Positions 5,275 through 43,422 of a stretch of 64,000 nucleotides of DNA are shown one piece after another. Every line of letters begins with the position of its first letter. Position 1 is the stretch's first letter. The DNA is taken from the NCBI RefSeq assembly GCF_964355755.1, contig NC_092677.1, positions 18,436,101 through 18,500,100 of the forward strand. The letters are read 5' to 3'. The translations under genes and the position numbers were made by a program. The stretch is from Antedon mediterranea. Taxonomy: Eukaryota > Animalia > Echinodermata. Under the pieces are notes generated by a model. The model was not told where the DNA came from, did no database searches, and was given only the letters and a program-made list of their open reading frames with translations.

Positions 5275-8200
5275 TTTTTTTTTTGTTTTTTTTTTTTTTT
5301 TATTGAACACTTTCATATTTAAATTTAAAAAATAGCTTAAAATAATAACACTTTCTTATTAATAGTAATACACAATATAAATAATAACACTTTTTAAATA
5401 ATAATAATATATAATATACATTTCTCTTAAGAACAAACTATAAATAATTTCATGATGTAATAAATATAAATCTACTTTTTCTTTTTTCTTAAAAACAAAG
5501 TCTATAAATAATTTGTTGTCAATTTTTTTTTTATAACATATTTCAACTAAATAATTTAATTAAACATAAAACTTTCTTATTCAAATATATAGTTATAACT
5601 TACTAAATAAACAGATCATAAAAGTGTATAAATAATTCAGGATTAAAAAACATATTATAAAAAACAGTACTAAGTCCTTTTTTTTAATGCAAAGTTACCA
5701 GTCAATAAGTTCATGTTTTTCCAAGAAAGGACTCCATTTGTTTAAGTAAGTATGATGCTCCCCTTTGGTTTTCAAAATAAATTCTTCTTGTTTAACGTGT
5801 AACTTAATCTCATTCACGAATCGAACAATATTGGGCTTAATTTTTCTCATTTTACAGCTATATATGTAGTGTCGACAAATTAGTAAAATAGTATTTAGGG
5901 CTTTAAATGGTTTTTTTCTAACTCCAAAAAGGCATAATTCGGGGTTGATAATTACATTTATATTAAAATATGATTTCAACCATTGTTTAATCTTTCTCCA
6001 AAATATTTTAATTTCACAGCATTGTGCAAAAATATGTATTAAGGTTTCTGTTTCTGCTTTACATAAAGCACATAAAGGTGAGTCAATTTTCCCAATTTTA
6101 TACAAAAAGGAGTTATTACCTAAAATTCTATGCACAATTTTATATTGAAACCAGATTAGTGGTGTGGACATAGTAAGTGAGAAAAACATGGTATTAATAA
6201 TTTCCCACTCTTTATCAACATATAAAGTATCCAATGCCTTCTCCCACTTAATTTTAGCTTTCGATTGTTTTTTTCTAGAGTTGATTAGAGTATTATAAAT
6301 TAGCTTTGATCCTTTTTTATTTTTTATTACTACGCTAAGGTTAAAAGGTAGTAGTGGGCTATTTATTTTTCCTTTTGGAGAAATTTGATATAAAGACGTA
6401 TGTTGTCTGACCGCATGTATTAGGCCTTCATATTGAAGAAAGTTGATGTTAAGATTATGACGTTTACTAAGTTGTTTTAATGGAGTTATTCCATGTCTAT
6501 CAACTAAATCATTTATAAAATTCACCCCATGATTACTCCAGTTTTTATAATAGATACTTTCTCCGCCGACTTTAATATTATCATTCATCCAGAGTGTTTG
6601 TCTACATATCGATTCGGTGCTCATAGGAGTGTTGTGTTTCACAAATACGCACCACGCCTTTATTACATCCAGCCAAAATGCATTGTAAGGCTTAACCTTC
6701 GCTAATTTGATTAATTTCGATGATCCGCCTTCTATGAGCCAAGTTTTATGAATATTCAACACGAGTGGAACTAAAAGAGCCCATCCCGTCTCATTGGACG
6801 TTACTAACCGTCTAACCCACGTGATTTTTACCGATTGAATATATGCGTTTATATCGACCATTCGTAAGCCTCCAAATTTATTTTCTTGTATAAGTTGATC
6901 TCTGGATATTCTATCCACCCCTTTCCATATGAAACGATATAGTTCTGACTTAAGTGATTTTATTACATTTTCAGGGGGATCGGGTAATGTCGAAAGGATA
7001 TAGGTAAGTTTGGACAGTAATAAAGACTTCACTACCGTGATTCTTCCCAAAACAGTTAAGTTTCTTTTTGACCAATGTCTCATTGTATTTTTAATTGATT
7101 TATATACGTCTTCATAGTTCAAATCTACCATTTTATTTAAATTTGTACTGAACCGAATACCCAATGATTCAAAGGGTTCTCCATGTTTGATCCATTTTAT
7201 ATTATAGTTTTCGCATATTGAGTCACCTCGGTCTTTAAAAGAGCCAACCCAGACAGCATTTGTTTTGTTCACATTCACTTTTAGCCCGGAAATTTTGGAA
7301 AATACGTCGAGAGTCTTAAATGCTTCGTGCATTGACTTCTCTTTACCGTCAAGAAACAATACAGTGTCGTCCGCATACTGAGATAATCGATACTCATGAT
7401 TTGCAATTGATATTCCTTTAATTTGTTTATTTTCAGATATCATTGAGGATAAAATTTCTGCGCACAGAAGAAACAGGTATGGACTCAGCCCATCCCCTTG
7501 TCTACATCCTCTTTCGATTAAGAATGATTCGGAGAGAAAGCCATTGACAAGAACTGAGGATCTTGCATCTTTATATAGTACTTTCACCCATTTTTGAATG
7601 GATTGTCCGAAGTTAAAATGTTTAAGAACGCAGTTAACAAATGTGTGAGAAATGCAGTCGAACGCTTTTTCAAAGTCTATCAGTAAAAGCAGACCAGGGA
7701 TTTTCTTCTTTTCACAAATTTGAATAACATCATACATAAGTCTTGTATTTTCGCCTATATATCTCCCATTAATAAATCCTTTCTGTTGTTCACTAATTAA
7801 TATATCAAGGACCGATTTTATTCGTTCTGCAATGCATGACGAAACAAGTTTATAAGTGACACTTAACAGGGTAATAGGTCTCCAGTTTTTTAGATACTCT
7901 CTGGGTTTATCCCTCTTAGGGAGTAAAGTAATTATTCCTGACTTTTGGGAAGTTGACAGTTGACCTGAGTTATACGACTCGTTAATAGCTCTCAAAAGAT
8001 AGTAAACTAAATCCGCAAAAAAGAACTTAAAAAACTCATAGCTAAAGCCGTCAATACCAGGTGACTTTCCATTTTGTGACCTCTTAAGAGCCACTAAAAG
8101 TTCGTTATAAGTAATTGGCCCTTCAATTTTATTTTGTTGTTCTTTTGTTAATGTTGGTAATGTATTCATAGTTTTAAGAAGTTTTACAATATTTTTTTCA

Positions 8201-9764: not shown

Positions 9765-10699
9765 TAAATAATAGACTAAAGTACATTTTGAGTATCGGAG
9801 GATTTGTGATAAATTCTTATTTTTCAGCTTGTTATACTGTATTTTTATATTTTTCAGGCTGGGACAGATGTTGACAGCTTTGCATCAGGAAAAGACCAGA
9901 CTTATTTACAGCCATTTATCCTTGCATTGGGTGATGTTAAAGAACCTACAGAGTTTTTTTGTTATTGTTGATGCAACATCTATTCCTGGTGGTAGCGCAA
10001 TTGTTCAGAAAATTGATCGACTTTTTAAAATTCAGACATTATATATTTAATGTCCAATTTGCCAGTCCGCTTTTAACCTTTTCAATTTCTTTGAAGGTCC
10101 CTTATAAGAAATTACAACAAACATCAAACCAACTGTTATATTCCCATCTTATTCGCGATGATGAGTAACGGAAATGAAATGTTTTTGATGAATTTAAATT
10201 ACCTCTTAATTATGCAGTATAGAGATTTGCTTTTCAAAATAAACAAATTAATATAGCTCAATGTCGGTTTCATTTATTTGGTTGTGCACAATTGTATTTT
10301 AAATGTTTGCAATGCATGTTTTTAAGGCTACTCTACCAAGTTTGGAATCACAGGAGCAGCCTTACAGACCGAAGATACAAGTAGTAAAAGAATACGTTAA
10401 AAATACCACTCCTAAAAAAGAGTGGTTTCCTTTCACTCTTTTATGAGTTGATTATTTTCACTCTTTTTGAAAGAGTGGGTCACTTTCACTCTTTTATGAG
10501 TGGATTATTTCCACTCTTGTTAAAAGAGTGAATTAAAATGTTCACTCTTTTTAGAGTTGGTTTCACTCATTTTAGAGTGATTTGGTGACCACTCTTTTTT
10601 TCACTCCAAAACGAGTTGTCCCTCAGTTAACTCTTTGAAAGAGTGGAAGTTCACTCTAGTTTGAGTGGTTTCTCACTCTTTTACATTAAGAGAGTACAC

Positions 10700-20002: not shown

Positions 20003-20216
20003 TTAATGTAATTATTCTAAATAACATCAATGAGGAAAATTGCAAAATACATCATAAACATAATGTTTTAAACATGTGTTATTTCTTATGTTTATGTTAA
20101 TTTAACCTTTTATATTACATAAAATTGTCTTTCAAAATGATACACTAACCATTCGTACTTATACTAATTAATGTTCACTATCATCATGGCTGCTAAACTG
20201 TAAGTAATTTACTATT

Positions 20217-22877: not shown

Positions 22878-25800
22878 ATGCAAACGTTGGTAGTTGTGTT
22901 TCTAGCCGTGTTTTTTTTTAACGGTGGTTGTGGTGAAGGTAAGTTAGTATCAAATAATATATTATTATCTTTAATTTGCTTTACAATGTATTACTATATA
23001 CATTATTGATTACATAAACCTACAAGTATAAAACAGCAACTCAAAGAACAAATATTCAACTGGGAGCCATTGGGTTTCTTTATATAAATTTACGTAAGGA
23101 AAAAATTCGATAAATCGCGCGTTATTTCTAGAATGTTTACTCGATGGTATATAAAGTTGGTTCGTGCTTTCGGTACTAATTTTAACCACCTGATGTAACA
23201 CTGTTTACTAATTAAATTGATAATTAGTTATTGACAAAACACGATTTACCCCAAATAGGGTTGTTTTCCGATCATGGTATACACTGTCTAATGGATGTCT
23301 ATCTTGAAAAATACCCGCACACAATAATACAAGGATGCTTCGCATTTTCCTGTCTTTCCTCCTACGATAAATGTTTTAATGGCTGAAAACCGATTGAACA
23401 GCTCGAGTACAGAATCATATTGTTGAGGATTTTCTTTAAAAAATACTATTTTGATAGAATTGATATACGTTTAAACCACATGTATTGATTTACGGTGAAT
23501 GAAACATTCCAAAGGTATTACTAGAGGGTTCGTTCGCTCGCCATCCTCAAGGAAGTGTAGACGTCGACGGTTCTCGGAATGATAATGACTCTGGTAAAAA
23601 TGTTTTAGAAGGAAATTTTTGCCTGGACATTTTCGGTCGGTTACCATTATTGAAATGCTTGATATTCGTAACTCACTAACCTGTTTCACAGTGTCTTATG
23701 ATTAATAGCGTTTTACGTATAGTGTTTATTGTTAGCACTAGGGATTCAGACCAAAAAAAATCAAAAAGATCTAACGTCTATTGATTTTTGGGCAAAAAAT
23801 TGCCTCAAACTGAATCCCAATAAATGCAAATCTATGCGACTTACTTAGAGAATATATCCCATTATATACAGCATTTCTGATATACGTTTAGATTGTAATG
23901 ATTTATTAAACATTTTAGGCTGTTCCATACAAAGTAACTTGTCATGGGACAATCAAGTTCAGGATGCAGTGTCAAATTGTAACCGTCTTATTGGTCTTAT
24001 ACGGTTAATCACATCTATGCCTCTAGTAGTGTAGTTCTCCATCTTTATAAGACACTTGTGCTGTCATGCTTTTATTATTGTTCTCTAGTGCGGTGGGTGT
24101 ACCGTAAAAAATATTTAAATATGTTAGAATCCGTTTAGAGGAAAGCTACCTGCATGATCTTAAAGAAAGGTTATTTACATCAACATTATATAGATAGAAG
24201 AAAGGAGCTAGGTCTAATGTCAGTAGAGAATAGACGTGATTTCTTAAACAAGACATTCATTGCCAATATAATAATTTCACCACGATCTGATTTTATGAGT
24301 GATTATATTGATTCTTTAACCGACACCTAGTTATACTTACCTTTCATTATGGTAGAGTCCGTACTGATGCTTAAATAATCAGGGATAGCAAAATGTTTTC
24401 AGAACTTGGTGCTCCGATTAGAAATAATCTTATTGAAGAGTCGTTTTTTAAGTTTAAACACAGTTTAAAGCAACATTTTATAGATTTTTTACTTTTCATA
24501 TTTTTATTTATTTTTTTAAATTGTACCTACTCTGAATTTTTAACTTTTTAACTTTTAGAAAATCAGAATTTTTAACTTTTATACAATCATAATTTGTAAC
24601 TTTTATACAATCAGAATGAAGATGACAGTTTTATTGCTTTTCCGCTACCCTGTTATACTTACATATTTTTTTTTATGTAGAAAGATTGAAAATAATTAAA
24701 AAACAAAAGAAAGAAGCGTGACAAAGAAGCGTGAGATTTAGATTAGGATTTCTCTTGCTCCAGTCGGCCATATGTAACAGAATGTGGCACACAATCGTGC
24801 GTGCTGGTGGTCTTATGACGACTATGACAAAAAATACATAACATAAGTTGCTGATTGTTGTTAACAACCTTTTTTTATCTTTACAGAGATCACATTTCCA
24901 GGAGGTTTCGGAGGAGGAAGAAGTAAGTAAAAGAAAGATATATGAAACTATAAATAAACATTCATTGTTCGTTTTAATGTTTCTCGATTTCATTGAGGCA
25001 TATTTAGTATTTAAAAAAATGAATTATGACATGCTTCATTGCTTTTATACACTAGATGGTACGCTCGCTTCGCTCGCGTACCATCTAGGTCGTGCCCACA
25101 GATGGTTCTCGAATACATAATAATTTCAGCGTTAAAAAACTGGCGATTTCAAATGTACGTAGGCCTACCGCAGGACAATAATACATGTCGTTTACAGGAA
25201 CGAATAAATAGACACTGTGATTTATGTACTCAACTAAAATTAGCACCCTGGGAATTACTTCCGAAAGAGAAACTTGTCACAAAATGAGACCAATTGTTTA
25301 AGTCAAATTTAAACAAACTTAATTTGTGTTTTGTATGTAACATTAGGGTTGAGGGATGGGGAAGAGGATGGGTGCAAAGAGGAACACTTTTTAAATATAT
25401 TCTTTATCCATTTAGTAACGAAATATTAATTGTTTTCATGTTTTACAAATAATATACCACTACACACAGTAAAACATTGCGATGTAATACTTTGTTGAAA
25501 CTATCACCGTCATAGTCGATTGAAATAGTACAGTACATGTAACGATACATCACTACGACGTGTATATGTTTATATAATGTAAAACAATTTGTGAAAACCA
25601 CCTCTATTCAGGGAAAATCATAAATTCGATTTAATCGTCAATAAATATTAAATTATCTAACTCAACTTAATTAGTAGGCCTAATGGTTTTCAATTGTTTC
25701 TTAGAGCCAATTCATACTTAAGTTGGTTCCTACCCTACCCACCAAAGTTGTTCTGCGTTTAGGGCAATGTACCGTAGGCTATCCTCTACTGGTTTTACAA

Positions 25801-28800
25801 CGCTACTCATGCCAGTGAGGGAAGGGTGATGATGTGGGTGGTTTAACTGCAATAATAAAGATGTGTACATAATATACGGCGAGTGAAAACGCTAGCTCAT
25901 TATCCGTTTAAACAAAATTTATATCCAAAATGGATCGAATTTCTGTTATGAGTATACAGTACTTGCCTTTACGACGCCTGAGGGAATAGACGGTTGTGGA
26001 ACAGAGATTGGAATGTTCCATTCATCGCAAATCAATACATTTGTATAAACGTATATTAAATCTATCAAAATAGTATTTTTTAAAGAAAATCGGCCTGTCT
26101 TCAACATTATGATGCTGTACTCGAGCTGTTCAACCGGTTTTCAGCCATTAAAAACAATTATCGTAGGAGGAGATAGGAAAATGCGAAGCATCCTCGTATT
26201 ATTGTTTGTGGGTATTTTTCAAGACGAACATCCATTAGACAGTGTATACCACGATCGAAAAACACCCATATTTGGGGCAAATCGTTGAACCTAAATTCGT
26301 TTTAATCGATCAATAACTAATTATCGAACTCAATTTAATTAGTAAACAGGGTTACATCAGGTGGTTAAAATCAGTACCGAAAGTACGAACCAACTTTATA
26401 TACCATCGAGTAAACATTCTAGAAATAACGGGCGATTTACCGAATTTTGCCCTTACGTAAATTTATATATAGATGTATAGTTAAAACATTGTAATGCTTG
26501 TTTCTTACAGGAATACAACCCACTGGAGGCCATGGTGGTGAGTTGAAAGTGTTTTATATACAATATGTTTTAGTTTTCACAAATACTATTATTTATTTAC
26601 TTGATAAACATAAAACTATGTTGAAATGGTTGTATTAAGCATATAATAATACTTATATTAATAATGATAAACCAATATAATACAAAATATTGTGCAAACT
26701 GAACAATATGTAAGTGTACCGACCAGAATTGTTCTACATAAAAATAGGACTTTCTATATAAAAACTGCCAAATTTCCTAAAACGACGAATTTTCTGTTTT
26801 TACGCTCTACCGTACGCATCTTTAAAAGAATAGATCATTTCGCAGTTTTAAATAATTTACTCACTTCCGTAATCAAGTTTTGTTTTATTTTTCTTCTTCT
26901 TTGTTTTTAGAAGTAGGTCATTGTTTAAACTGTAAATACATCACGTGTAAGCCAAAGCAGCCAAATCTTTCAACTCATGAAATAATTATCTTCTTTCAAA
27001 ACACTAAACTCTTCACTACCTGTTACAAAGTACATTTCTATTCAAATAATGATTCTATCTTCTTGAATCGTTGTCAAACTCTAAGCTAGGAAGGTAGTCC
27101 ATTAAAAAGGCAGCACTCCTATTTTGAAATCGAAATAGTACCATGGATATTTTGAATGCGAAAGAGTTAAAAAGCTGCACGGGCACTATGACTATGAATT
27201 AATGAGGTATAAATTAAAAAAATGTATACCTTCATGACTAATCTGAAATCATATGTATATCCCTAATATGTCTACATTGTTAAAATATTGTTCTCTGTAA
27301 AGTTGTCCTTGATTCTCAACCGCAAAACAATGAAGCCAAAATGTTTTATAAAATATCCAAGCACCACAATAATCTAAATCAAGATACATAGGCCTACAAT
27401 ACAAGATCAAAGGAATTATTAAAATTGGATAAACCCAAAACAGAATTTAAAACTAAAGTTTTTGATATCGTGGTAGATTATGGAATACTGTAGAAAACCC
27501 AATGCAAAGTGCCAAAAATACTTAAACAAAACTTTGCATGTAACTTTATTTTGTACCCCTAAATATAATGAAGGTTTCTGTTTATTTAGGCCTATGTTTT
27601 TCTCTCTCTTTTATTTTTAAATTAGTAATGTATTAAGTTGATCATGGCCTTGTTGTAGAACACTTTTCCGTGTTAAAATAAAATGATTTATTATTATTCT
27701 ATTATTATATGGAAAAGAGGTCATATATATTTAGAACGATTAATTAATCTTCCCCAACTATGACAAATGTGATGGCAAATGCCGTATAAACAATTATGCC
27801 CCATCGTTCACGTAAAGTTATCATGTATACTTTTTCAGCTCATGAAAGAAATCGTCGGGATAAATGTGAGTAGCTCCTGTACATATTGTAGTTAATAGGC
27901 CTACCTTTGATATATTACGTCTGTGCTGAAATAATATTTCAAATATATGTTTTTTGTTATTGATTATATAGGCCTATGTTCATTGAATTTGTATCGGTTA
28001 CTATTTGTATTTAACCTTCTGTTTTGAAATAAAATAAATATTTTCACTGAAAATGCAATAGGCCTACATACGGACACTTTAAAATAAAGTAAATGCTTTG
28101 GGTCGATAGCTATGGCAATGTTTTGGTCAATATAATAAAATTAACTAAAATACAAAGAGGACGTATCGTATCTTTATAATTTTACATACATATCGTAAAT
28201 GTACACCGATACACTACGTAATCAATTAGGTGGGGGCACATAGGCTACGTACAGCATACATTTTGCATACCTTGATTTACTGAATTTCAGATCGCTGTAA
28301 CTAAAACGTGTTACAAGGCTTAAACAAGATTAGGCCTATAACCTAACAAATTTGGGCTGTTCAAAATGTTAATTATTTGTTGTTCTACGCTTTGTAGCAC
28401 TAGTACCTCCTGCCGTAACTGGAATAAATGTTGAAAGTGGTGAGTCAACTATCCATAACTTACACTTATTTTAAACAGTAACAGGCTGATAGACAAGAAA
28501 CAATAATTATATTTTATTGCCTATGATAAAATAGGCAATAGCGTTATAGCCTACGTATTACATTTTAAAACAAGTTTAGCATAGTAACAGTACTATATTA
28601 CATTACATTATGTAAGTGCCATAAGTTATCATTTGTTTTTTTACTGTATTTCAGGTCATGACAGAATCCGCCGGGAAGAACGTGAGTAACTGTAAAAAGT
28701 TGATAAAACATTTATTTAAACAAGACTTATAATAAATCTAATATATTTTTATTATCTTAACATTTAACTTTCGATCACATCACTTTTTTTTTTTTATTAT

Positions 28801-31800
28801 TTATTTTATTTTATTTTATTAATAATTTTGTATAGTAATATCATAATCAACACATATTAACTTTCTTGCTAATTGTTTTGGTATAGATAATTAAATGCAT
28901 AAAACTCAATGAACTGAAATAGGCCTACGTATTGAGACCAACATCTACGTATCGTACTTTATACATTCAACATTATCGTAAAACTAAACGTTGATAACAT
29001 TGTTTAAACAAGATTATAACATAACAAATGTGTACAGTCTGTTCAAAATGTTAATTATTTGTTCTACGGTTTGTATTATTAGAACCTCCTGGCCCAAGTG
29101 GTAGAATAAACGTCGAAAGTGGTGAGTCAAATAACCATAACTTACACTTACACAATTCAAAAAGAAAGAGAAGAAACAATAATTATATTTCACTGCCTTT
29201 GATTTAGGAATAAAATATGCAAACGTATTACATTTTGAAACAAAGTTTAGCATCGTAAACAGTACTATTACATTATGTAAGTTCAATAATTTATTATTTA
29301 TTTAATGTATTTCAGGTCATGACAGAATCCGCCGGGAAGAACGTGAGTAACTGTAACACATAACACATAACTTAATCTATTTTTATTATCATAAAACTTA
29401 ACTTTCGATCACAACACTAAAATGTACCTTCATCGAAATGTTTATGTGCTAGCTGCTGTAGTTCTTCTTTGTGATTCAAAGTTTAATTGTATAATATTAT
29501 CATAACCAACACAGATAAACTTGATTTCGAATACATTTTCAAATAATTAATACATAGGCTAAAAATCGAAACGATTTAAAATAACAAGTAAAAATTGAAA
29601 AAATAAATAGTCAACCGAAATAAAGGAATACTGGATTAATATTTTCCTTCTACTATTTGTATTAAGTACAGCTCACTATGTCGGTCGGTTGGTCGGTCGG
29701 TCAAATAACTGAAACATGAGCACGCGACTGCAGCCATGTATATGTCCGTGTTATATTCATCATATCGTAAATATACACCCACACACTACTAAATCAATGA
29801 GGCGGTACAGTAACACACGTACAGCAACAATTGTTCATACCTTGATTTACTGAATGTCAGTACACCATCTCACCTAGTAAGCTGTATTGTAAAGGTCGTT
29901 GATCTAAATGTTAGTAAAGCGATCGCATATTCGGTGTAAGAACAGACAGAACAAAACATTTTGTGGTTGATAATATAAAATCAAATGCATTTACTCTTAA
30001 CACTTGTGTCCCACAGAGATGTGTTCTGTCCCCCTTTTTATTTACTTTATACTCATATGATTGTAAAGCAACTAGCGATTGTCACATTTTTAAATTCGCT
30101 GATGATGGGCTGATGATACAACCATAGTAGGTCTAATTACAAAAATGACGAAAATAACTATTTTAAACAGGCCGAGAGAATGATCTTGTGTTGAATGTAA
30201 ATAAAACAAAAAGAAATGCATATTTTTTTTCAGACGTCAGCAAAATTAAAAGTTCCCACTAATCCAAGGCAAAGAAGTTGAAATTGTTACAAGTTCTTAT
30301 GTATTCACTTTGCCGATGTTGACAAATGTTTCAAAAAAGGATCTCAACGTATTTTCTTTCTTAGAAGGATCAGGCAATTTGGTATTAGATCAGAGGTACA
30401 TTAATAATAATAATAACAGACTATCGATCAATAGTTGAAAGTATTCTTACTTTATCCTTTATGGCTGTTCCAATGAAGATAAAGAATAATAAAAGTTACA
30501 CAAGGTTGTTAGAAGTGCATAAAAAGTCATAGCCATACCCAAACGTTCTATTGGTACTTTGTACGCTGAACGTTTGCTCAAAAAGGCAAATTGATGATCA
30601 TAAATGATCCATACTATCCTGACATTTCCAAATTATGTCTCACAGTCACATATTTAGATCGATACTTGTAAAAACTAATTTCTGCAATCAGCAATCCGTT
30701 CAATTAATGATACATGTTTACGTTTAAGTGTTGTACTTCCCTGAAACCTTGAAATACCGGAATGGTGTCCGGCGGCGGGGTTTAGTTTTGACCAACCCCG
30801 AAACCTTGAAATACCGGAATGGTGTTCGGTGGGGTTTAGTTTTGACCAACCCCGAAACCTTGAAATACCGGAATGGTGTTCGGCGGGGTTTAGTTTTGAC
30901 CAACCCCGAAACCTTGAAATACCGGAATGGTGTCCGGCGGCGGGGTTTAGTTTTGACCAACCCCGAAACTTTGAAATACCGGAATGGTGTCCGACGACGG
31001 GGTTTAGTTTTGACCAACCCCGAAACCTTGGAATACCGGAATGGTGTCCGGCGGCGGGGTTTAGTTTTGACCAACCCCGAAACCTTGAAATACCGGAATG
31101 GTGTTCGGCGGCGGGGTTTAGTTTTGACCAACCCCGAAACCTTGAAATACCGGAATGGTGTCCGGCGGCGGGGTTTAGTTTTGACCAACCACGAAACCTT
31201 GAAATACCGTAATGGTGTTCGGCGGGGTTTAGTTTTGACCAACCCCGAAACCTTGAAATACCGGAATGGTGTTCGGTGGGGTTTAGTTTTGACCAACCCC
31301 GAAACCTTGAAATACCGGAATGGTGTTCGGCGGGGTTTAGTTTTGACCAACCCCGAAACCTTGAAATACCGGAATGGTGTCCGGCGGCGGGGTTTAGTTT
31401 TGACCAACCCCGAAACTTTGAAATACCGGAATGGTGTCCGACGACGGGGTTTAGTTTTGACCAACCCCGAAACCTTGGAATACCGGAATGGTGTCCGGCG
31501 GCGGGGTTTAGTTTTGACCAACCCCGAAACCTTGAAATACCGGAATGGTGTTCGGCGGCGGGGTTTAGTTTTGACCAACCCCGAAACCTTGAAATACCGG
31601 AATGGTGTCCGGCGGCGGGGTTTAGTTTTGACCAACCACGAAACCTTGAAATACCGTAATGGTGTTCGGCGGGGTTTAGTTTTGACCAACCCCGAAACCT
31701 TGAAATACCGGAATGGTGTCCGGTGGCGGGGTTTAGTTTTGACCAATCCCAAAACCTTGAGATACCGGAATGGTGTCCGGCGGCGGGGTTTAGTTTTGAC

Positions 31801-34800
31801 CAACCCTGAAACCTTGAAATACCGGAATGGTGTTCGGCGGGGTTTAGTTTTGACCAACCCCGAAACCTTGAAATACCGGAATGGTGTCCGGCGGCGGGGT
31901 TTAGTTTTGACCAACCAAGCAACCTTGAAATACCGGAATGGTGTCCGGCGGCGGGGTTTAGTTTTGACCAATCCCGAAACCTTGAAATACCGGAATGGTG
32001 TTCGGCGGGGTTTAGTTTTGACCAACCCCGAAACCTTGAAATACCGGAATGGTGTCCGGCGGCGGGGTTTAGTTTTGACCAACCCTGAAACCTTGAAATA
32101 CCGGAATGGTGTTCGGCGGGGTTTAGTTTTGACAACCCGGAAACCTTGAAATACCGGAATGGTGTCCGGCGGCGGGGTTTGGTTTTGACCAACCCCGAAA
32201 CCTTGAAATACCGGAATGGTGTCCGGCGGCGGAGTTTAGTTTTGACCAACCTTGAAATACCGGAAGGGTGTCCGGCGGCGGAGTTTAGTTTTGACCAACC
32301 CCGAAACCTTGAAATACCGGAATGGTGCCCGGCGGGGTTTAGTTTTGACCACGTAGTTGAAGTTCTATTTTTTTGCTGTAGCCGGGAAGCGATTTTTTTT
32401 TTTCGTACATAAGTTGGGGACCCCCTCATGAAACGTCACAAAATAAACATGAATAATTCATCAGTTAAATTTGTTGTTCCGTGTGCACCCAAGCGTATAG
32501 CAACAAGAAGCGATTACACAACTGCAATACGATACTTTCTACAACAGTAGGCCTAGGATTCTAAGTCAATTCACGCGATTGCCTTCGCGCACTCTTCTTC
32601 ACACAAAATGTGTCGAGTCGAGGCTAATCGACAGCTAGGCAAGACATTAAACTAAGTAGTAATTCATTGGACATAGCCCAAAGAAAGCTTAGACCCACAA
32701 GAATAAAGAATGTGTATAATTTGTGTACTGTATTTTTTTTAATTCTGCTATTTTATTATCAAACAATGCATGTACTCAAAGGAACTTTAAAAATGCGCGT
32801 ATATGAACACATGAGATGGGAAGATTAGACCCACTAGAATCGTACCGCACTTGTGTAATCATTTCTTGTTGCTATACGCTTGGGTGCAAACGGAACAAGA
32901 ACATTTAACTGATGAATTATTCATGTTTATTTTGTGACGTTTCATGAGGGGGTCCCCAACTTATGTACAAAAAAAAAAATCGCTACCGGGATGCGGGATA
33001 TCTTGACGCCATATCTACAATGTCCCTCTCATATTGGTCTAACTCCTCTCTACGTTGCGGATAAGCTCCGCACAATATATTTTTATAAATACCAAAGGCA
33101 TATATGAACTCCCCGATATTTAGCCTTTTGTTTAACCTTATATCTTTAGTGTGGGCATTTGCACCATCCTTGTTGTTGGATTCGATGGATAGACCAGAGT
33201 AATACGGAATCATTATTGATGCTAAAATAACATCCCTACCTGAAATGATCTGTTGCCGGATTGCCGGAGAGATTGTTTCCACTAAAGCCCCTTTCTCACA
33301 GATGTGCCTGCAATATACCGGTACAGTGCTGGCGTCGTGCCGGTATCGTTACCGGCATATAACCATTCTCATCGGACTATCGTGCCGGAAATATAACCGG
33401 TATATACCGGCTTTCTGTGAGAAAGCAGTCGGGCATATTCGGCCAATAAAAAGTCTCTGACAAAATAATTATTGAGGGCGTCCTTTAAACTGATTCCCAG
33501 TTTTGCTAAGACGTGTGCGTCTATTAATATGGACATTGACTCAATTTTCGAAACTTCCTACCTTGGCAATGACCCTGATAGTCATTGGGTTAAGAGATTT
33601 AAAGAGTTGATGCATGACACAAACATTGCATTTTGGAAAAGTGAAATGCTAAGAAAATCGTCACTTCAGACATACTCTCTTATTAAGTCTAATCCCTGCC
33701 TTGAAAAATATTTATTGGATTGTACAGACTTTCTAGGATCTAGCCTCAAATTCAAACTACGTTCTAACACCCTTCCTTTAGGTCACAGGAGTTGTAAGTG
33801 GCTTCCTGAATATGATGGTATCTGTAAAATGTGTAAGAATGGTTTAGAAGACATTCAACATTTTCTATTCACATGTAACCAACTCAATGGCATAAGGATT
33901 GAAGAATATACCAAATTAGAATATATGTTAATCGATATCAATCATTTAGATGTATGGGAAAATTGTATCTCTGGTGACCTGAACACCAAATTAAATCTTG
34001 TATTAGGTGGAACTGATAACTACTATCATTATATGTATGACGTCGATTCCATATCAAATATCTTTGATTGTTACTGTAAGCACTATGTTAAAAGAGCTTG
34101 GGCACACAGATGTATTGTTCTAGGCGAGTAATGTTCATATCAATCAAACTAAATGATTGATATCTATCTCACTAAATGATTGATATCTATCTCATTATAG
34201 TGTTAGGTCTACATTGTTGTTGCCCAATTCATTTTATATTGTACAGTTCCTACCTAGTATTCTATATGTTTATTTCTTGTAATTTTGTATTTTTAGGTGT
34301 CAGTTCAATGGTATTGTAGTTACTGTAGTTGAATTGTTTTGACATGTTGACCTATGTCGACTTTTTATTGTAATTGTTATTTTCTATATCATGTTTTTTT
34401 TTTTTTGTATATTTCTCTTGGATGCACCTTCCATTTGGTCGAGTGCCACTGTTGTAAAAGTGTAATCTCCAAATAAATTATTAATGTTATTATTTTTGTC
34501 TAGCGATGATATGGCGGCGAATGTCAAGTTACAGATTATTATCTTCCTTTATAGCATATTTATGCAATACATGCTATGTACAGTATATTGTGCATATATT
34601 ATACAGGCATAGCAATTAATTTGTCGTCATCGGCAATCTGTAAAACACCTTAGAAGGCTGTAGGCCTACAATTTACAAGGCGATGAAAGGTCAGGCACCA
34701 ACAAACAAAGAGCTAAATGGCCTAGCCTAGCGGCCTATAGATTATGCTACAAATTTCTTCTTGTCCCCTTATTTTAAGCAGCTCTCTTATCTCATTATCC

Positions 34801-37706
34801 CTCCAGTTCGACATTATTATTGTTAATTGAATTGAATAGGCGCCAAAGTGATACACTTGACCGCGCAATGTGTCAAAGCCTCGACGGGGAACCCCGGAAT
34901 TTAACGGCGATACGTTCTCACAGAATGCCCGTCTGGCATTGCGGGGAATATCCCTAGAATATTACTAGGTCTAAAGCAGGTCATGTCGATGCCGGCATGG
35001 TGCCGGCATGATGCCAAGACGACCCGTTCTCACAGAAAACCATACCGGCATGGTAATGGTATATTCCCGCAATATTCCTGGCACACAACTCTGTGAGAAA
35101 GGGGCTTAATAGACAAGTTCTATTTCCTCTGAAATATGGTGTAAGAAGCATTTTTGGGTAGAAGCTGGGATCCACTTGATTTAGGATATTTCGACCTCGC
35201 TGATTACGAATATGGCGGATCCCAAGCGAAATTCGGCCATCTAAGCCCTTAATTTGCATAATTAAAAATGGCGGCCATTTTTTATAATTACCCTATATCT
35301 CGAGAACCACTAGTCACAGATAATTAATTTTGGTCTCAAAATGTTTTAAATATATGTTTTTATATTCACTTTAATGACACATTTTCTCAAAAAATGGATG
35401 CAAGTCTTATTTCTGACATTTTGACCTTTGACCTTTATTTATCGTATCTCAGTAACCAATAATCGGAGAGACACGAAATAGGGCTCAAATTGTTCAGAAA
35501 CTATACATTCATATTTATTATAATGAAATGTTTTTACAAAAAATGGCCAATTCTACAACTATTGACCTTTGAACTATTAGTCAAATATAATAATATAATG
35601 ATAATATAACTTTGAAAATTGTGGTCTTATGAATTTTTTTTTCTTTTTAAATTGTTTAAAATATGTGTGTTTCTATCCAGTCTAATGGCACATTTTGTAC
35701 AAGAATGGCCGATAGTATGGTTATTGACCTTTAAACTACAGCATAGGCCTACTGTATACTAAATATAATATAATTGCATAACTATGAAATTATTTATACA
35801 CAATAATAATTAGTAAAATTATAAAATTCACTGCCATCAAATATGATGTGTTATGATTTATATAGATTAAAAAAAAAATTTGAACACGCAAGTTACATTT
35901 GTTGAAATTTGAAATTTGAAATCAAGACTAAAAAACATGAATTTTCCTTAATATGGTCAAATACAAAATTTGGCAAAATTCTTCCATAAAAACCAGGAAG
36001 GCTTTTTTTCAGTAGTTAGGTAGTAAACCTAATGTAATAACATTGAAAAAAGATGGTGGATATACAGTGGATAATTTTTTTGCTATAGCATGAAAATAAT
36101 TATTTTCAACAAGCTCGTGTAACACAAATTAAATGCCAAAAATTATGAAACATAGGGGAAACTATAGATCGATAATTATTGGAATGTATGATCAATAGAA
36201 ATTTTTTGCCCGCACCTGGCCTTTAAGGTGAAAATTCGAGCCAACAACAACAAGTTTACGTACTGTAATTAATAGGTAAATTAATTGTATTACATTTCGT
36301 CTGGAAAATCGTCGCTAGCGAAAGTAAACAATAAGATTTCAAACCACGAGTATGCATTATGCATGATGCTAATTAGGATTTAGAAGGACTATAGTGACCT
36401 CACACAAGGTTACCGTACTAATAAATTAAACGTAAAAGACTAGGCGACATATTAATAAAAACAGGTGTCCCTATCAAATAGATCAGATTCACTCGACACG
36501 GCCCTCCAAGCATATAACGCTCCTGCGAACAACAATATATACCTCAAGGATGTTAAAAAAAACAAATATGTAAGTTACTTACCGGTAATTCTACATTCAT
36601 TAACCATTATCAAATAATATTCCATATAAAATCATTTATGCTTTAATCATCTCTATTCTATTCTTCAGATACCAATCCATGTGACTCAGTTGATTGTAAA
36701 AATGGTGGAAATTGTTACATTAATTCTTATTACCAAGTTTATTGCGCGTGTCAAGATTGTTATTCTGGAACATACTGTGAAAAATGTAAGTTTGTTGAAT
36801 TTTGAATTCAAAATTATTTACTGCAATTACTTAAGTTATTTGAATTATAATTAACAATTTATACCCATTTTTGTTACAGATAATGATCCTTGTAATGATG
36901 ATAGTAATCCATGTCAAAACTCTGGTCTCTGTATTTCTGAGGGTTGTAATTTTTGGTGTAAATGTCCAGCATGCTATACTGGTGACAGTTGTGAATATTG
37001 TAAGAATCCTACCCACATACATACAACGTTCTTATATTAATTATAATTTTACAATTAAAATACATTTTTCTTATAAAATAATAATTAATCATTTCAGCAT
37101 TATTTTCAAATCATTTTGAAAGGTCTTACTTTCCATCCTCCTATCTGTTGTAATTGTAATTTTAATTGTGTTTGTATGAATTTATTTCACTAAATTTTAA
37201 TAAATTATTTTCTGCTTAGACATTAACCCTTGTGAAGATGTGAATTGTAATGGCGGGCAATGTGTAGTTATTTCAAACATCAGTCAGTGCACATATGAAT
37301 GTACCAACTGTCCATATGGCTATACTGGAAACAATTGTGAAACTCGTAAGTACAGTATTCAATTACTTGTTAAAGCATGCCATTTGGTTATAAATTCCCT
37401 ACAGGTGTTGGTGCCGTCGTGGAACTACTGGCAATAGATGTCAATGTAAGTATGAACACGGATTACAAAATGTATGTGTTTATGCGTTTGTTACCTAATT
37501 AACAATGCCTCTCGGAGTACAGTGATTTATTTGTTACTAACTAATTAACATGCCTCTCGGTCTACAGTGATTTATTTGTTACTAACAAGACTCCTATGTC
37601 ATAATTAACAATGCCTCTCGGAGTACAGTGATTTATTTGATAAGACTAACATTTTACAATTTTACTTGCAGATACTTCTGGTTACTACGCCCCATACGGA
37701 GGATAA
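22878..37706 (+). CDS. Secreted precursor: signal peptide, micro-exon peptide repeats with convertase sites, 3 EGF-like domains. Exons 22878-22938, 24887-24922, 26511-26537, 27839-27865, 28398-28439, 28655-28681, 29083-29121, 29316-29342, 36669-36785, 36880-36999, 37220-37345, 37672-37706
   Basis: Every exon has a pyrimidine-AG acceptor and all but the last a GTAAG/GTGAG donor; all introns are phase 1 and all internal exon lengths are multiples of 3. Joined frame: MQTLVVVFLAVFFFNGGCGEEITFPGGFGGGRRIQPTGGHGAHERNRRDKSLVPPAVTGINVESGHDRIRREEQPPGPSGRINVESGHDRIRREEHTNPCDSVDCKNGGNC...CETHTSGYYAPYGG*. The splice from 29342 to 36669 is inferred. Confidence 0.72.
23080..23512 (+). mobile_element. Helitron 5' fragment of the same family
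   Basis: TATATAAATTTACGTAAGG..AAATCGCGCGTTATTTCTAGAATGTTTACTCGATGG is the reverse complement of the end at 26400-26470. Confidence 0.75.
23760..24480 (+). mobile_element. Degenerate CR1-group LINE 3' fragment
   Basis: Remnants KLNPNKCKSM, SNLSWDNQV, VVLHLYKTLV, LESV*RKATCMI and RRKELGLMSVENRR. Confidence 0.65.
25052..26473 (-). mobile_element. Complete non-autonomous Helitron in intron 2 of the micro-exon gene
   Basis: 5'-TC...hairpin-CTAG-3' on the minus strand; the paralogous intron at 41467-41490 shows the empty site TTTTATACA|TGTATAGTTAAAAC with no TSD. Confidence 0.95.
27800..29860 (+). repeat. Tandem duplication of a two-micro-exon module with its introns, about 2.5 units of 650-800 bp
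   Basis: Exons 28655-28681 and 29316-29342 are identical and 27839-27865 is related; 28398-28439 resembles 29083-29121; flanking intron sequences are also similar. Confidence 0.85.
29930..30737 (+). mobile_element. Degenerate Rex1/Babar-like LINE body (RT 3' half); probable 3' tail displaced to 40070-40140
   Basis: Remnants CVPQRCVLSP, FKFADD, LNVNKTK and SQRIFFLRRIRQFG. A tail with AATAAA and CTTGA repeats follows the composite block. Confidence 0.7.
30738..32350. repeat. GC-rich minisatellite, 57/54-bp unit, about 29 copies, with a 447-bp higher-order duplication
   Basis: Unit CCCGAAACCTTGAAATACCGGAATGGTGT(C/T)CGG(CGG)CGGGGTTTAGTTTTGACCAAC. Identical ORF-track peptides at 30829 and 31276 mark the 447-bp repeat. 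Confidence 0.97.
32389..32983. mobile_element. MULE-type MITE, copy 1 (about 595 bp, about 135-bp TIRs)
   Basis: GCGATTTTTTTTTTTCGTACATAAGTTGGGGACCCCCTCATG...CATGAGGGGGTCCCCAACTTATGTAC(A)nTCGC; nearly identical to 39467-40060 and in the same orientation. Confidence 0.92.
32984..33282 (-). pseudogene. DIRS/Ngaro-type retrotransposon Gag-like fragment
   Basis: ETISPAIRQQIISGRDVILAS...DIRLNKRLNIGEFIYAFGIYKNILCGAYPQRREELDQYERDIVDMASRY resembles ORF1 of tyrosine-recombinase retrotransposons; bounded by other elements on both sides. Confidence 0.65.
33286..35106. mobile_element. PIF/Harbinger-like non-autonomous element with a nested LINE fragment
   Basis: TIR AGCCCCTTTCTCACAG...CTGTGAGAAAGGGGCT; TSD TAA at 33283-33285 and 35107-35109; subterminal CCGG-rich motifs. 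Confidence 0.85.
33472..34492 (+). mobile_element. 5'-truncated non-LTR retrotransposon 3' end (RTEX/CR1-group-like; ORF remnant 33472-34131)
   Basis: SSLQTYSLIK..LEKYL..KFKLRSNTLPL..CKMC..EDIQHFLFTC zinc-knuckle C-terminus; 3' UTR ending in AATAAA and an ATT-rich tail. Confidence 0.75.
36669..37345 (+). CDS. Three phase 1-1 EGF-like domain exons (36669-36785, 36880-36999, 37220-37345)
   Basis: NPCDSVDCKNGGNCYINSYYQVYCACQDCYSGTYCEK; DPCNDDSNPCQNSGLCISEGCNFWCKCPACYTGDSCEY; NPCEDVNCNGGQCVVISNISQCTYECTNCPYGYTGNNCET. Canonical AG/GTAAG boundaries, no stops. Confidence 0.92.
37497..37640. repeat. Short intronic tandem repeat, 3 copies
   Basis: AATTAACA(A)TGCCTCTCGG(AG/TC)TACAGTGATTTATTTG three times. 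Confidence 0.85.
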
Positions 37707-39466
37707 TATCTTAAAAGAAAATAATAATGAAATAAATATTATATAAATAAGCAGGAATTGTGTGAAAACAATGTTTAACACGATTCTATTTCTATCACAT
37801 CTCCAATGATCATTCAGTAAGATATTTCTAATATTTGTGAATTTATTTATATTATATAATATATTAGGTAATTTTAATACTATTTTATAAGAATTTATAT
37901 TAATAAATGAATAAATATGTAAAAGATAATTTATCTTCATTAAGATAATAATAATAATAATAGGGCCTAATAATAATACATTTTTAGAGCGCATACAGGG
38001 TTAAGCCTCTTTGCGATTAACAATAGAAAATAACAAGTTTCCAATAAAATAAAACTGGAACTAAATATTAAATAATATAATATAAGCATTAATATAACTT
38101 TTAGTTTGATAGAATTTGTAGCTAGGGACGTACTGTATTTTGAATTTAATGTTACAGTATAATTAATTTGTTACAATGAAATTCATGGGTTTTTGTAAAA
38201 CCAGAAAAGAATTATTATAATTTATTTATATAAACGGTGTTCAATTTGAACTAAAATATAAAATAATATGATATTTGATTTGTTTTGTATTTGTTTACAA
38301 ATAAAAATCTAAAAGTATGTCTAGTAGGACATTTGCTTTCTACATTTTAATAAACGTACTTTTATAATTAAAATTGTGATTACTTCGTTATTTTTGTTAC
38401 TCCATAATCAAATAACTTTAAATTAGATAATAGCAAATCTAACAATTATTTAAAGTTGTGAACGTCTAATTAATTATAGCATTTCTAATGTGTAATGTAT
38501 TTCATCGATCAGATTTTAAAGATGTATTGTCTCCCAAAAACATGACGGAAAAATGAAGATTAATAAAATCAGACATTGAATAGGCCATTGTATATTTTTA
38601 ATTAAGCTGTAGAAAAATGAAAAAAATAATGGTTTCACTTATAAGAAGCCAAATTAACTAATTGTCTGAGACAATTTGAGTATTTTTTGCTTTTCAGGTA
38701 AATAATTTTTTTTTCGATCCAATTTTTGGTTAAAGTTTAATATTTAAAGTTACATTAAAATGGCATATTCAACAAAAACATGTTATATATAGTCAACTGA
38801 TTCATATCTAATGCAAAGTAAACAATGGAATTCACGAAATCACCACTACAATACCACAAAGCTAAAGAAGTCCTTTTACTTCATTAAATCGTGTGTACAA
38901 AACAATTCATTCGAGTTACTACGATACCAACCAATTGTTGCTGTTCTTACCTCGTGTCTAATATCATTGGTCTTTATGATTCATATTAATCTTTATTGGT
39001 CTAATCATAACAAAAAATGTAATACGAAAATGTTTATAAACTGCAAATAAAATGTAAAAATATACATAAATATGGTTAATAACATCTCATTAAATTGGTG
39101 GTATATTATTGTAAAATGCTTCACTAAAAGTAACATAAACATAATCACTTTACGATTGTCATTTTTATGACATTCATGACAGACTACAATTTATATTGTC
39201 ACGTCATTTTTGCCATGACTATAGTCTTTATTGTCATCACCATTGAATCACCATGACTACGATCATTATCATTATTTGTTATCATAATCATGGTTACAGT
39301 CATTGTCATTTATGTTATGTTATCATCACTGTCAAAACGGTCCAACATGTCTAGCTCATCTGTCATCTTTTGTATGATTAGTCCTAGTAATCGTTATTAA
39401 TGCATATTTTAATATTAAAGTTGATCGTCTTATAGGCCTAATTCGCTTCTATACCCGGACCCGGAT

Positions 39467-40060
39467 GCGATTTTTTTTTTCGTACATGAGTTGGGGACCC
39501 CCTCATGAAACGTCACAAAATAAACATGAATAATTAATCAGTTAAATTTGTTGTTCCGTGTGCACCCAAGCGTATAGCAACAAGAAGCGATTACACAGCT
39601 GCGATACGATACTTTCTACAACAGTAGGCCTAGGATTCTAAGTCAATTCACGCGATTGCCTTCGCGCACTCTTCTTCACACAAAATGTGTCGAGTCGAGG
39701 CTAATCGACAGCTAGGCAAGACATTAAACTAAGTAGTAATTCATTGGACATAGCCCAAAGAAAGCTTAGACCCACAAGAATAAAGAATGTGTATAATTTG
39801 TGTACTGTATTTTTTTTAATTCTGCTATTTTATTATCAAACAATGCATGTACTCAAAGGAACTTTAAAAATGCGCGTATATGAACACATGAGATGGGAAG
39901 ATTAGACCCACTAGAATCGTACCGCACTTGTGTAATCACTTCTTGTTGCTATACGCTTGGGTGCACACGGAACAAGAACATTTAACTGATGAATTATTCA
40001 TGTTTATTTTGTGACGTTTCATGAGGGGGTCCCCAACTTATGTACGAAAAAAAAAATCGC
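39467..40060. mobile_element. MULE-type MITE, copy 2; right boundary of the putative composite transposon
   Basis: Near-identical to 32389-32983; right flank AGCCGGGAA (40061-40069) equals the left flank of copy 1 (32380-32388). Confidence 0.92.
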
Positions 40061-41302
40061 AGCCGGGAAACCGTTCAAATTCATTTCAATGTAAATTGGT
40101 CTATGTTTTACAAATAACAATAAATTTACTTGACTTGACTAGAGAGGCCAGAAATACAAGTCTTCTAAAAAATGTTTAGGAGATTTTTTTGTTAATAGCA
40201 GGCAACCATGTTGAATGTATACTTTGTGGGGTGACAAAAACGATAGGGGTGGATGCCATCTTCAGTTTTGGGATTTAGGTCAGTTATGTGGTTATGTGGA
40301 TTTTTTTTCACGCTGCTGCTTTAGCCAGCTATGTCCCAGGAGGATGACTCATTAAGAAACCGAAAGTAAAGCAGAAGTTTTGCTAAAGGTTGACAGTTTT
40401 GCTAAAATGTATACTCGACTGTAATTTATAGGTACCACCAAAAAACGTCTGGGAAAGAGTCTAACGGTTGAATGACAAATCCCAAAGCATTTGTGGTATT
40501 TATGAGTTCAATGATATTATAAAATTCGCTTTCAGATGATACTTCAGACTTGAATGAAGTATCTAGTCATGATGGAGTGACCCGCAGACTTGACCTTAGC
40601 AATAAAATAAACTAAAGTGACTGATATGAAACACAGACTCTGTAACAAAAAAATAATATTTGTTCACATATAAAAAAAGAAAAAAAAACCGTTTAATTAT
40701 AACTCAAAAACCACTGTCTGACAATTAAGTATTTTTGACATTAAATTACATTTTTTCAGGTAAAATAACTGTTATGTGACAATAAAATGACACATTCAAA
40801 CACAAATTTGAAATAAAAAATATTTTTCAGAGGGACAATATATCTTTAAAACTGTTACGTCAATAAGCGAGCAGCGTTTTTTGTAAGAAATATTTCTTGT
40901 TTATTTTATTTTATTCACAGAAAATCACATCTACAGATTTTCTGAAGATCAGCTATCATCAAATATTATATTAATTATGAGATAAACATTTTATTTTATA
41001 CATAAAAACATAGGAAATGAAATACAAAAGTGTCATTTTCTCAAAATGTTGTTTTCACATAATTTCGATAGAACATCTTTTAAGTGGCGTGAAAGACACA
41101 CTGGGCGTTTCATAGAAATCACCGGCGGCTCAACTTGTCGGCGGTCCGCATTATTTTTTTTCTATGCAATTAAGGCAGAAATCATTGAATAATTCATTAT
41201 AGAATAATTATGACATAATATGGGAAAAGTGTATGCCATTAAAATACTGATACTAAGTGTTTCAATTACAGTGAAAACGTCTTCCATTTTTTATCTTTAC
41301 AG

Positions 41303-41540
41303 AGATCACATTTCCAGGAGGAAGAGGAGGAGGAAGAGGAGGAGGAAGTAAGTGAAAGAAAGATTAAATATCAAACTATAAAAATCATTCATTGTTCATA
41401 TTTCTTGATTGCATTGAGGCATATTAGTATTTCAAAGAAGGATTGAATAATGACATGCTTCATTGCTTTTATACATGTATAGTTAAAACATTGTGATGCT
41501 TGTTTCTCTATAGGAATACAACCCGCTGAAGGCCGTGGTG
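41303..41540 (+). CDS. Paralogous micro-exon pair (41303-41347, xITFPGGRGGGRGGG; 41514-41540, RIQPAEGRG)
   Basis: Homologous to exons 24887-24922 and 26511-26537, with intron homology extending to about 41795; splice sites intact, phase 1, lengths 45 and 27 nt. Confidence 0.7.
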
Positions 41541-43422
41541 GTGAGTTGAAAGTGTTTTATATACAATATTTTTTAGTTTTCCCAAAATACTATTATTTAT
41601 TTACTTGATAAACATAAAACTATGTTGAAATGGTTGTATTAGGCATATAATATAGGCTTATATTATAAATGATAAACCAATTTTGTTGATTTATTTATTC
41701 TAATTCTTCAAATTATTAACCAAAATAGATATGATACAAAATATTGTGCAAACTGGACAATTTACAAGTGTCCCGACCAGAATTGTTCTACATAAAATAA
41801 AATGTTTAAACTAAAATTCACAACTAAATACCATCGATATACAAATTACATTTAACAACAAGTTAAAAGCTTAGCATCAAAGTTATGTTTTAGTGTTAAA
41901 GACAAAGGAGAATATAATTAATATCGAATACTTTTACATACAACATCATTCATCACAGTCGTTAACTTATTAAAGCTTCCACTCCCCACTTGGACAAAAC
42001 GCGTGGTCGCCACAAGTAAATTGACCAATCACGGCGCGGTGGATCAACTTATCTGTGTCGAGGAGCGAGGAAACAAGTCCCAATATTGCAATGAATAAAT
42101 ATGACGTAGGTTGGTCGTCGGTCAGAGGTTATATCTGTATTTGTGTGTCTACTATATCATAAAATTGATAAAAAAAGGATACAAATTGTCAACAATAAGC
42201 TACAAATAAATGTTCACAATTTTCTTAAACTGTACAGTGTGATTAATTATTATTATTAACTATTATATCATTATTGTATATACATTTTAATGTAATTAAT
42301 TATTAATGTTTCAATTGTATTTTTAGATGGTTACTAAGGAATTACATTGATCAGCCATAGATACATCTCTTTATCCTTATGTAAACAATTGGCGAATATA
42401 AACACTTGTGTGTTTTTGTGTAGCCTACATGTACAGGAACATATTCATCATTCGCGGTACTATACGTACCATTTATTTGTATCAACAACATATATATATA
42501 TAAAGTATTTCTTTCACAAGAATATTTCTATAAATACATATTGTTAAGAGATAAATATAAAGCAAGGAAAACGTGAAAAATAATTACGAAAAATTACAAT
42601 AGAAACATTTTTAAGGTAAATTCCAGTTTTAGATGTAGAGCAAAGTAGAAAATAAAAGAAAACTATGAAAAAAGATGGATATTGCGAGAACATACTACTG
42701 TCTGGCTATTTTAACCACTTCTCTATCAACACTTGTGTCTCTCTGTATTTGCTCTGTGCAGTTATGCGCATCCCTAGCTGTAACCTCATTAATGTTGGTC
42801 AGAGTACAATAGTAGTTCTTTAAATTCCTATTCAACATTTAAATTCTAAAAAAAACCAATGGTTTAGGCCTATATGTACTTTGTTTGCGACATATATAGC
42901 GCTTTTACAGTGGGTATAACTTTTTGAGCGTTCGTTCATTCTTGTGGATTCAACCAATGTATTTTAATATTTAGGTTTTGCCAAAGCCACTAGAAATAAT
43001 AACACATATTTATCATGCTTGCTGTTGTTTTTATTTATAAGGTTATTTTATTTTTGGAAATCTAAATGTTTATTTAGCCACAGTGTGCCTGTCTTTATTT
43101 TCATATACTCGCAATTCCATCATTTTCTTATACTGACCATGATTGCATAAAAGAACCTTGATATGGTTAGAAAGCTACACTCACACTTGTTCCGTTTCAC
43201 GGAATGGAAGACGTTCAATTATTTTTATGATTTTCCATTGCTTACCAAAACAGACTCGTGTTCCGTTCTCTATGGTGTGATAGCAATGTTGCCTTTTTTT
43301 ATAAGTCTTCGTTATAAAAGGTCCTGTGGCATAAATTATGACCTATTCAATGCACGGTTGTTCATTTCAACGGCTAGTACTCCGAAAATCAAAAGGGAAA
43401 CACGACGGGTAACCACACGACG

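Follow-up and report, generated by a model that had tools for sequence, protein, structure and literature searches.

The 64,000-nt stretch of the Antedon mediterranea genome analysed here (contig NC_092677.1; hereafter the window) contains, on the forward strand, a signal-peptide exon and seven micro-exons (e1–e8) and, 7.3 kb downstream, three exons for epidermal growth factor (EGF)-like modules (A–C) followed by a terminal coding exon (Table 1). We consider it likely that these constitute one gene spanning positions 22878–37706, a reading in which we infer the join between e8 and exon A. For the product as a whole, the balance tips slightly towards a secreted, furin-processed precursor that would free a coat or adhesive protein made of stapled tandem EGF modules, in preference to a neuropeptide.

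Structure of the micro-exon run

An earlier note on this DNA had described a signal-peptide exon and seven phase 1-1 exons of 36, 27, 27, 42, 27, 39 and 27 nt, and all of them were found in place. All eight exons have AG acceptors and GT[AG]AGT donors, and e2–e8 are open. A strict exon filter applied to positions 22878–29400 passed six of the seven micro-exons on the forward strand and none on the reverse strand, compared with 0.051 on average, and never more than 2, in 1000 dinucleotide shuffles; over the whole window the filter returned nine exons, of which two besides these six belong to a second copy and a single one to neither group. The secreted precursor that had been proposed agrees with e1, whose signal peptide, called by inspection from a hydrophobic core and small residues at −3/−1, is present in the public gene model. 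The observation that each RxRR site sits on its own 27-nt exon also holds, since e4, e6 and e8 each contain a whole site; the GRR site spans e2 and e3.

The joins from e1 to e7 are the same in the NCBI protein XP_071959499.1 (P0045; 114 aa, uncharacterised, Antedon mediterranea), which was recovered with the frame from the e1 ATG (one match of two candidates) and is identical to the letter to e1–e7 followed by read-through into intron 7. This model is an annotation rather than a set of reads; the NCBI pipeline usually requires transcript support for calling 27-nt exons. The read-through may be a short isoform or an annotation artefact.

Intron 3 holds, at 26911–26946 (+), a candidate exon of 36 nt, open and symmetric in phase 1, which encodes three Cys and has a strong acceptor (6.1), a GTAAGC donor and a GC content of 31%; it may be an optional exon or a product of chance, and was excluded from our model because the NCBI model skips it. 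The e1 ATG lies 4 nt downstream of an acceptor, and a stretch ~2.7 kb 5' of e1 (20168–20206, +), with a GTAAGT consensus donor, is a possible non-coding first exon.

Table 1 Exons, exon copies and repeats of the predicted gene and its surroundings (positions within the window)
Feature	Positions	Strand	Description
e1	22878–22938	+	61 coding nt; start codon; predicted signal peptide; phase-1 donor; residues 1–20 of P0045
e2	24887–24922	+	36 nt; Gly-rich; 3' end is GR of the GRR site; in P0045
e3	26511–26537	+	27 nt; spacer exon; in P0045
e4	27839–27865	+	27 nt; cleavage exon, RNRR; in P0045
e5	28398–28439	+	42 nt; spacer exon, INVES at end; in P0045
e6	28655–28681	+	27 nt; cleavage exon, RIRR; in P0045
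e7	29083–29121	+	39 nt; duplicate of e5; in P0045
Intron-7 read-through	29122–29207	+	Stop at 29205–29207, AATAAA at 29209; 3' end of NCBI model
e8	29316–29342	+	27 nt; RIRR; same sequence as e6; outside NCBI model
Repeat-filled gap	29861–36668		Homology to intron 4 stops near 29860
57-bp tandem array	30739–32351		29 copies, 91% matches; long open frames on both strands
Inverted-repeat element pair	32382–32991 and 39460–40068		610 bp, 98% identical; ~155-bp terminal inverted repeats
zf-RVT fragment	33469–34131		Inside the gap
EGF-like exon A	36669–36785	+	117 nt; phase 1-1; 7 Cys, the extra one in the last loop
EGF-like exon B	36880–36999	+	120 nt; phase 1-1; 8 Cys, one extra each in hairpin and last loop
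EGF-like exon C	37220–37345	+	126 nt; phase 1-1; 7 Cys, the extra one in the hairpin
Exon-F remnant	37400–37445	+	3' part of a further EGF exon; skipped in RNA-like contig
Terminal coding exon	37672–37706	+	Tyr/Gly-rich tail, stop; 3' untranslated region runs beyond 37800
e2'	41303–41347	+	45 nt; second copy of e2, Arg/Gly-expanded
e3'	41514–41540	+	27 nt; second copy of e3

Continuity of the micro-exons with the EGF-like exons

The gene extent given in the earlier note stands for e1–e8, but e8 ends in a donor with no stop after it, and the next coding exons, which supply EGF modules and a stop between 36669 and 37706, lie on the same strand in phase 1. The 12-exon model is a single open frame of 227 aa with one terminal stop, with GRR at residue 31 and RxRR at 45, 68 and 90, and the 134-aa part after the last RxRR contains 22 Cys and 16 Tyr and has a net charge of about −13. 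Because e8 requires a downstream exon and the 12-exon frame is open, the product probably comprises more than short peptides; the peptide precursor of the earlier note is thus retained with respect to its signal peptide and basic sites, but probably not as a source of short peptides only.

Five sequencing runs from two studies were found and four were compared. Contigs from one of them (X1, presumed RNA) contain the joints 36785>36880 and 36999>37220 at GT..AG, with exon C connected directly to 37672, whereas the other three runs, from a single sample, covered the introns and had no such EGF-exon joints. Micro-exon sequence occurs on both flanks of the EGF block, e1–e8 on the 5' side and e2'–e3' on the 3' side, which is the pattern expected from tandem duplication of one gene. 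Two further NCBI models from Antedon, XP_071953093.1 (P0001; 253 aa, five modules, on a 31.7-Mb contig) and XP_071941017.1 (P0002; 362 aa, eight modules, on a 40.9-Mb contig), cluster together and start without a signal peptide, although EGF arrays of this kind require one for secretion: the first residues of P0002 come from an A-type exon read in a different frame, and P0001 reaches its first module via intron-like sequence. The sole protein of at least 77 aa found with the e1 signal exon was P0045 (one match of two candidates), on a 28.6-Mb contig distinct from those of P0001 and P0002. The gene model proposed here would correct the public annotation, which holds three uncharacterised and apparently incomplete models, one with a signal peptide and no EGF module and two with EGF modules and no signal peptide. 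Between e8 and exon A, four strong acceptors were found with short readings, none of which resembles the gene's own.

Several points weigh against this continuity. The e8-to-A join was not seen, and the X1 contigs, which come from a single run of a single study and are only presumed RNA, say nothing about e8. The 7.3 kb between e8 and exon A are filled with repeats. Record 1 of X1 has 156 unaligned nt before exon A, a length accounted for by one C-type exon (126 nt) together with a graph overlap of 30 nt, and is therefore likely to derive from a two-triplet form rather than from the window haplotype; an e8–A junction would be preceded by a 35-nt repeat, at which a 31-letter graph is expected to break. 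Acceptors are weak in e8 (score 0.8) and in e7 (−0.6), the latter being absent from the filter passes for this reason. The NCBI model omits e8 and stops in intron 7 with AATAAA directly after the stop, at a background of 2.2 AATAAA per kb, and a search with the window's EGF exons recovered no separate NCBI protein of at least 73 aa for them (one candidate).

The same observations bear on the rather unlikely alternative of a stand-alone multi-peptide precursor, a gene that has its 3' end in intron 7 or in an unseen exon and releases an amidated Gly-rich peptide together with two or three related peptides, the EGF exons being unrelated or a stranded duplicate. The intron-7 end of the NCBI model with its AATAAA is what such a gene would give, and the peptides have a common conserved end with synonymous changes only; a weak likeness to apidaecin precursors in the ESM Atlas (0.77, below the tool's bar) and the evident copying of the EGF block, near-identical blocks of which lie on two other contigs, point the same way. 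However, under this reading the intact e8 would lack an exon to join and the EGF arrays would have no signal exon at all, and it is unlikely that an EGF block in the right phase and on the same strand would have come to lie within 7.3 kb by chance. Motifs of the gene had no match in the available text of the crinoid neuropeptide inventory (PMC9793003) or in seven supplement files (six motifs; control motifs were found there).

Comparison with neuropeptide precursors revealed a signal peptide and basic cleavage sites, as well as one Gly-dibasic site, features shared with the crinoid precursors PCNP1-20 and the bilaterian types in the same inventory (PMC9793003). The sites of the Antedon gene are, in contrast, mostly of the furin type RxRR, and a C-terminal EGF part is likely. 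The amidation signal of the earlier note concerns only one of the four predicted peptides, which has Gly before a basic site. Two peptides have a common conserved end. The predicted amidated end is altered in e2', where Arg/Gly repeats replace it, and this also tells against the stand-alone precursor.

EGF fold and additional cysteines

The six-Cys spacing and the EGF fold place the modules in the EGF-like domain superfamily. ESM Atlas matches scored 0.91–0.94, with EGF clusters throughout among the ten shown, and AlphaFold on P0002 with a 31-sequence alignment gave a mean predicted local distance difference test score of 87.1 and a predicted TM-score of 0.49. Notch/Delta EGF arrays were the top Foldseek matches, and a PDB sequence search returned 22 matches, with PVFP-5 in 19th place (E 1.1e-5), below Notch/Delta. 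The Pfam EGF family reached 20.7 bits for P0002, under the cut-off of 21.5, and the window's three EGF exons searched singly matched no Pfam family. The calcium-binding EGF family EGF_CA had no match at E up to 10 in P0001 or P0002.

Counting in the eight modules of P0002 and the five of P0001 revealed a 7-8-7 Cys pattern, in which the first module of a triplet has its extra Cys in the last loop, the second in both hairpin and last loop, and the third in the hairpin. At the junctions between P0002 modules, extra Cys stand on both sides (last loop, then hairpin) in five of seven cases and on neither side in the other two. Among 42 other EGF proteins, by comparison, none of 247 modules had both extra Cys and none of 161 junctions had the Cys pair; the script behind these counts recovered 8 of the 13 Antedon modules, missing the C-type modules and one degenerate B, and was used for background only. 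In tandem EGF pairs, an aromatic residue of the last loop packs against the hairpin of the next module. The extra Cys are predicted to lie at this packing position and to form inter-module staples between A and B and between B and C, so that the 22 Cys of the mature part would comprise 18 in canonical EGF bonds and 4 staple Cys; intermolecular bonds are the alternative. Against the weight of these counts, the triplets are of common ancestry and the seven P0002 junctions are therefore not independent. The 7-8-7 code offers a testable structural idea, that EGF modules are stapled into rigid triplets. Module 4 of P0001 (B type) has its canonical fourth Cys replaced by Gly, and this locus may be decaying.

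Relatives and triplet number

P0001 contains a stretch with 100% identity to exon C and agrees with the mature part predicted from the window at 130 of 134 positions. P0002 carries a further triplet, D-E-F, of which the window retains a remnant of exon F only (15 of 15 residues at 37400–37444 identical to P0002 residues 337–351); the window locus therefore lost D-E-F by deletion, and triplet number thus varies at the DNA level. An X1 contig likewise passes from exon C to the terminal exon with no D-E-F between them, as the window locus does, which counts in favour of a single gene. We hold it very improbable that the window haplotype is a decaying or collapsed version, produced by deletion in one allele or by collapse during assembly, beside an active allele with more triplets. 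Record 1 of X1 would fit a two-triplet transcript, and the broken F remnant, the truncated e2'–e3' copy and the loss of a canonical Cys in P0001 have the look of decay; nevertheless, none of the 12 exons is interrupted or has lost a splice site, and such a haplotype would make the product longer or shorter and leave its nature unchanged.

A search with P0002 gave 43 matches among 261 candidates, consisting of P0001 and 42 generic EGF proteins from outside Antedon with 26–40% identity; judging by the names shown, none came from another crinoid. P0045, compared with 1.84 billion representatives, matched only itself and a bacterial cadherin-repeat protein, which was rejected because seven repeats add up to a chance score. 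Residues 1–87 of P0045 reached at best 0.78 in the ESM Atlas, giving leads only, and P0045 matched no Pfam family. Metagenome contigs gave 270 pattern matches, none of which was confirmed. No description of the gene or of the cysteine pattern emerged from the titles and abstract openings listed in a literature search, most subscription papers and bioRxiv supplements being beyond its reach. Judged from these sequence searches, the gene is apparently restricted to Antedon.

Exon duplication and the second copy

The pairs e5–e6 and e7–e8 form a tandem duplication of ~680 bp. Exons e6 and e8 are identical at 27 of 27 nt within a 51-nt identical run, compared with 287/343 (84%) in the introns (P ~0.008), with gene conversion as a possible alternative source of the identity; e4 and e6 share 19 of 27 nt. 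Exons e5 and e7 are identical at 33 of 42 nt, no better than their flanks; in the alignment the e7 acceptor is shifted 6 nt downstream relative to e5 with the frame kept, and the upstream half of the spacer has diverged, whereas the INVES codons differ at two positions, both synonymous. In the second copy, e3' is identical to e3 at 24 of 27 nt (flanks 92–96%), and all three changes are non-synonymous. A conservation of the exons above that of the duplicated introns, the lack of which the earlier note had named as a refuting outcome, was accordingly seen in e6/e8 but not in e5/e7 or e3/e3'. Within the window, no copy of e1 was found upstream of the second copy and none of e4–e8 after e3'. The segment at 41284–41797 (+) is a truncated copy of e2, intron 2 and e3 that lacks the transposon-derived insert of intron 2.

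Selection seems to maintain the frame and the residues right before the cut but not the peptides in their entirety, and a cleavable linker fits this better than a ligand. The pro-region grew by tandem duplication of a pair of spacer and cleavage exons (e3e4, e5e6, e7e8). Phase-1 cassettes have been gained and lost in the pro-region as well as in the EGF array; the change in genomic copy number is observed, and variation by splicing is possible.

Proposed product and comparison with known systems

In the proposed sequence of events, the precursor would enter the secretory pathway through its signal peptide, cleaved near Gly19, and a furin-type convertase would cut within the Gly/Pro linker, once at GRR and once at each of the three RxRR sites. 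The last cut would free an acidic, Tyr-rich EGF triplet of 134 aa with a Tyr/Gly tail, in which staples formed by the four extra Cys, between A and B and between B and C, would produce a rigid rod, and this rod would then enter an extracellular coat or adhesive; the small clipped peptides may be by-products. A coat or adhesive role appears likely by composition and analogy, a basis that tells against pressing it further. The gene is accordingly a candidate for a crinoid secreted structural or adhesive protein, the function of which we infer.

A His six residues before each RxRR cut, as found six residues ahead of the RNRR cut in e4, might delay cleavage until an acidic compartment of the secretory pathway is reached. 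A pH-gating His is known from other furin substrates; our literature search gave no confirmation of it. It is a doubtful further step that skippable 27-nt exons, each with a pH-gated furin site, determine how long a pro-region the protein retains, ahead of EGF rods that disulfide staples between modules make rigid and that comprise one, two or three triplets depending on the locus or allele. If true, it would represent a splicing device like that of micro-exon genes (MEGs), outside flatworms, which tunes how an adhesive or coat protein matures by proteolysis, and skipping of the cleavage exons, if shown, would be a clear case of splicing governing convertase processing.

The same single gene might instead produce signals or defence molecules, with the EGF array, the clipped peptides or both acting as receptor ligand, antimicrobial or deterrent, which we find improbable. 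The layout of a furin-processed polyprotein is compatible with this, as are the fast, mostly non-synonymous change of the spacer exons (e3/e3', three of three) with copy-number change, as in defence genes, and the lack of close relatives outside Antedon in the searches made. On the other hand, the product has no transmembrane segment and no basic sites between modules, and the cut peptides are short and not cationic. EGFR ligands typically have an Arg before the sixth Cys and a membrane precursor, whereas none of the three window modules has this Arg and no transmembrane segment follows the array.

With respect to the preferred coat or adhesive protein, EGF repeats recur in marine adhesives, and non-canonical Cys form inter-domain bonds in Sbp9, according to PMC13348336; echinoderm matrix is treated in PMC10381214. 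Like mussel Mfp-2 and Pvfp-5, scallop Sbp9 and sea-star Sfp1, as far as these sources describe them, the predicted Antedon protein has secreted EGF repeats and is Tyr-rich, and 3,4-dihydroxyphenylalanine (DOPA) is possible given the 16 Tyr in 134 aa of predicted sequence. By sequence it shows no orthology to proteins of the Mfp-2/Pvfp-5 type, to which its generic EGF matches are weaker than to Notch/Delta, and its strong acidity, fixed 7-8-7 triplets and micro-exon pro-region with three RxRR sites distinguish it from these marine EGF adhesives. Arrays of Notch, Delta and fibropellin share the EGF fold and the phase-1, one-exon-per-module arrangement, but the Antedon protein lacks a DSL, CUB, avidin-like or transmembrane part and has extra Cys at two fixed positions. 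The sea-urchin exogastrula-inducing peptide (EGIP) precursor is reportedly an echinoderm secreted EGF-only precursor cut at basic sites between modules, whereas the sites in Antedon precede the array and its modules are predicted to stay linked.

Schistosome MEGs, according to PMC8293314 and PMC4350168, combine a signal peptide with short symmetric exons and exon duplication amid transposons, and the Antedon gene resembles them in its signal peptide, its run of short symmetric exons, its exon duplication and its transposon-rich setting. The closest architectural parallel in these sources is SmVAL-6, in which a MEG-like portion is joined to a domain that folds (PMC4350168). The parallel drawn in the earlier note does not extend to membership of the MEGs: micro-exons (internal, ≤36 nt) make up 144 of 684 coding nt (21%) in the 12-exon model and 144 of 286 in e1–e8, no sequence relation to MEGs was found, the host is a free-living echinoderm, a crinoid, and the convertase sites stand ahead of a folded EGF array.

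Repeats and neighbouring features

The long open frames of the 57-bp tandem array matched no Pfam family at the cut-off. One of the two 610-bp inverted-repeat elements lies on either side of the EGF block, and degenerate low-complexity sequence rich in Asp, Asn and His at 39120–39400 (−) has stops in all three frames. An intact 1277-aa frame of long interspersed nuclear element (LINE) type, encoding endonuclease and reverse transcriptase, lies at 5695–9528 (−) and is flanked by 143-bp direct repeats (5136–5278 and 9765–9907, 99%). A neighbouring gene occupies 51177–56300 (+), and its first exons resemble cytochrome b5 in translation; at 58340–58600 (−), a match to Pfam ASC (E 1.1e-5) marks the final exon of a gene for an amiloride-sensitive sodium channel.

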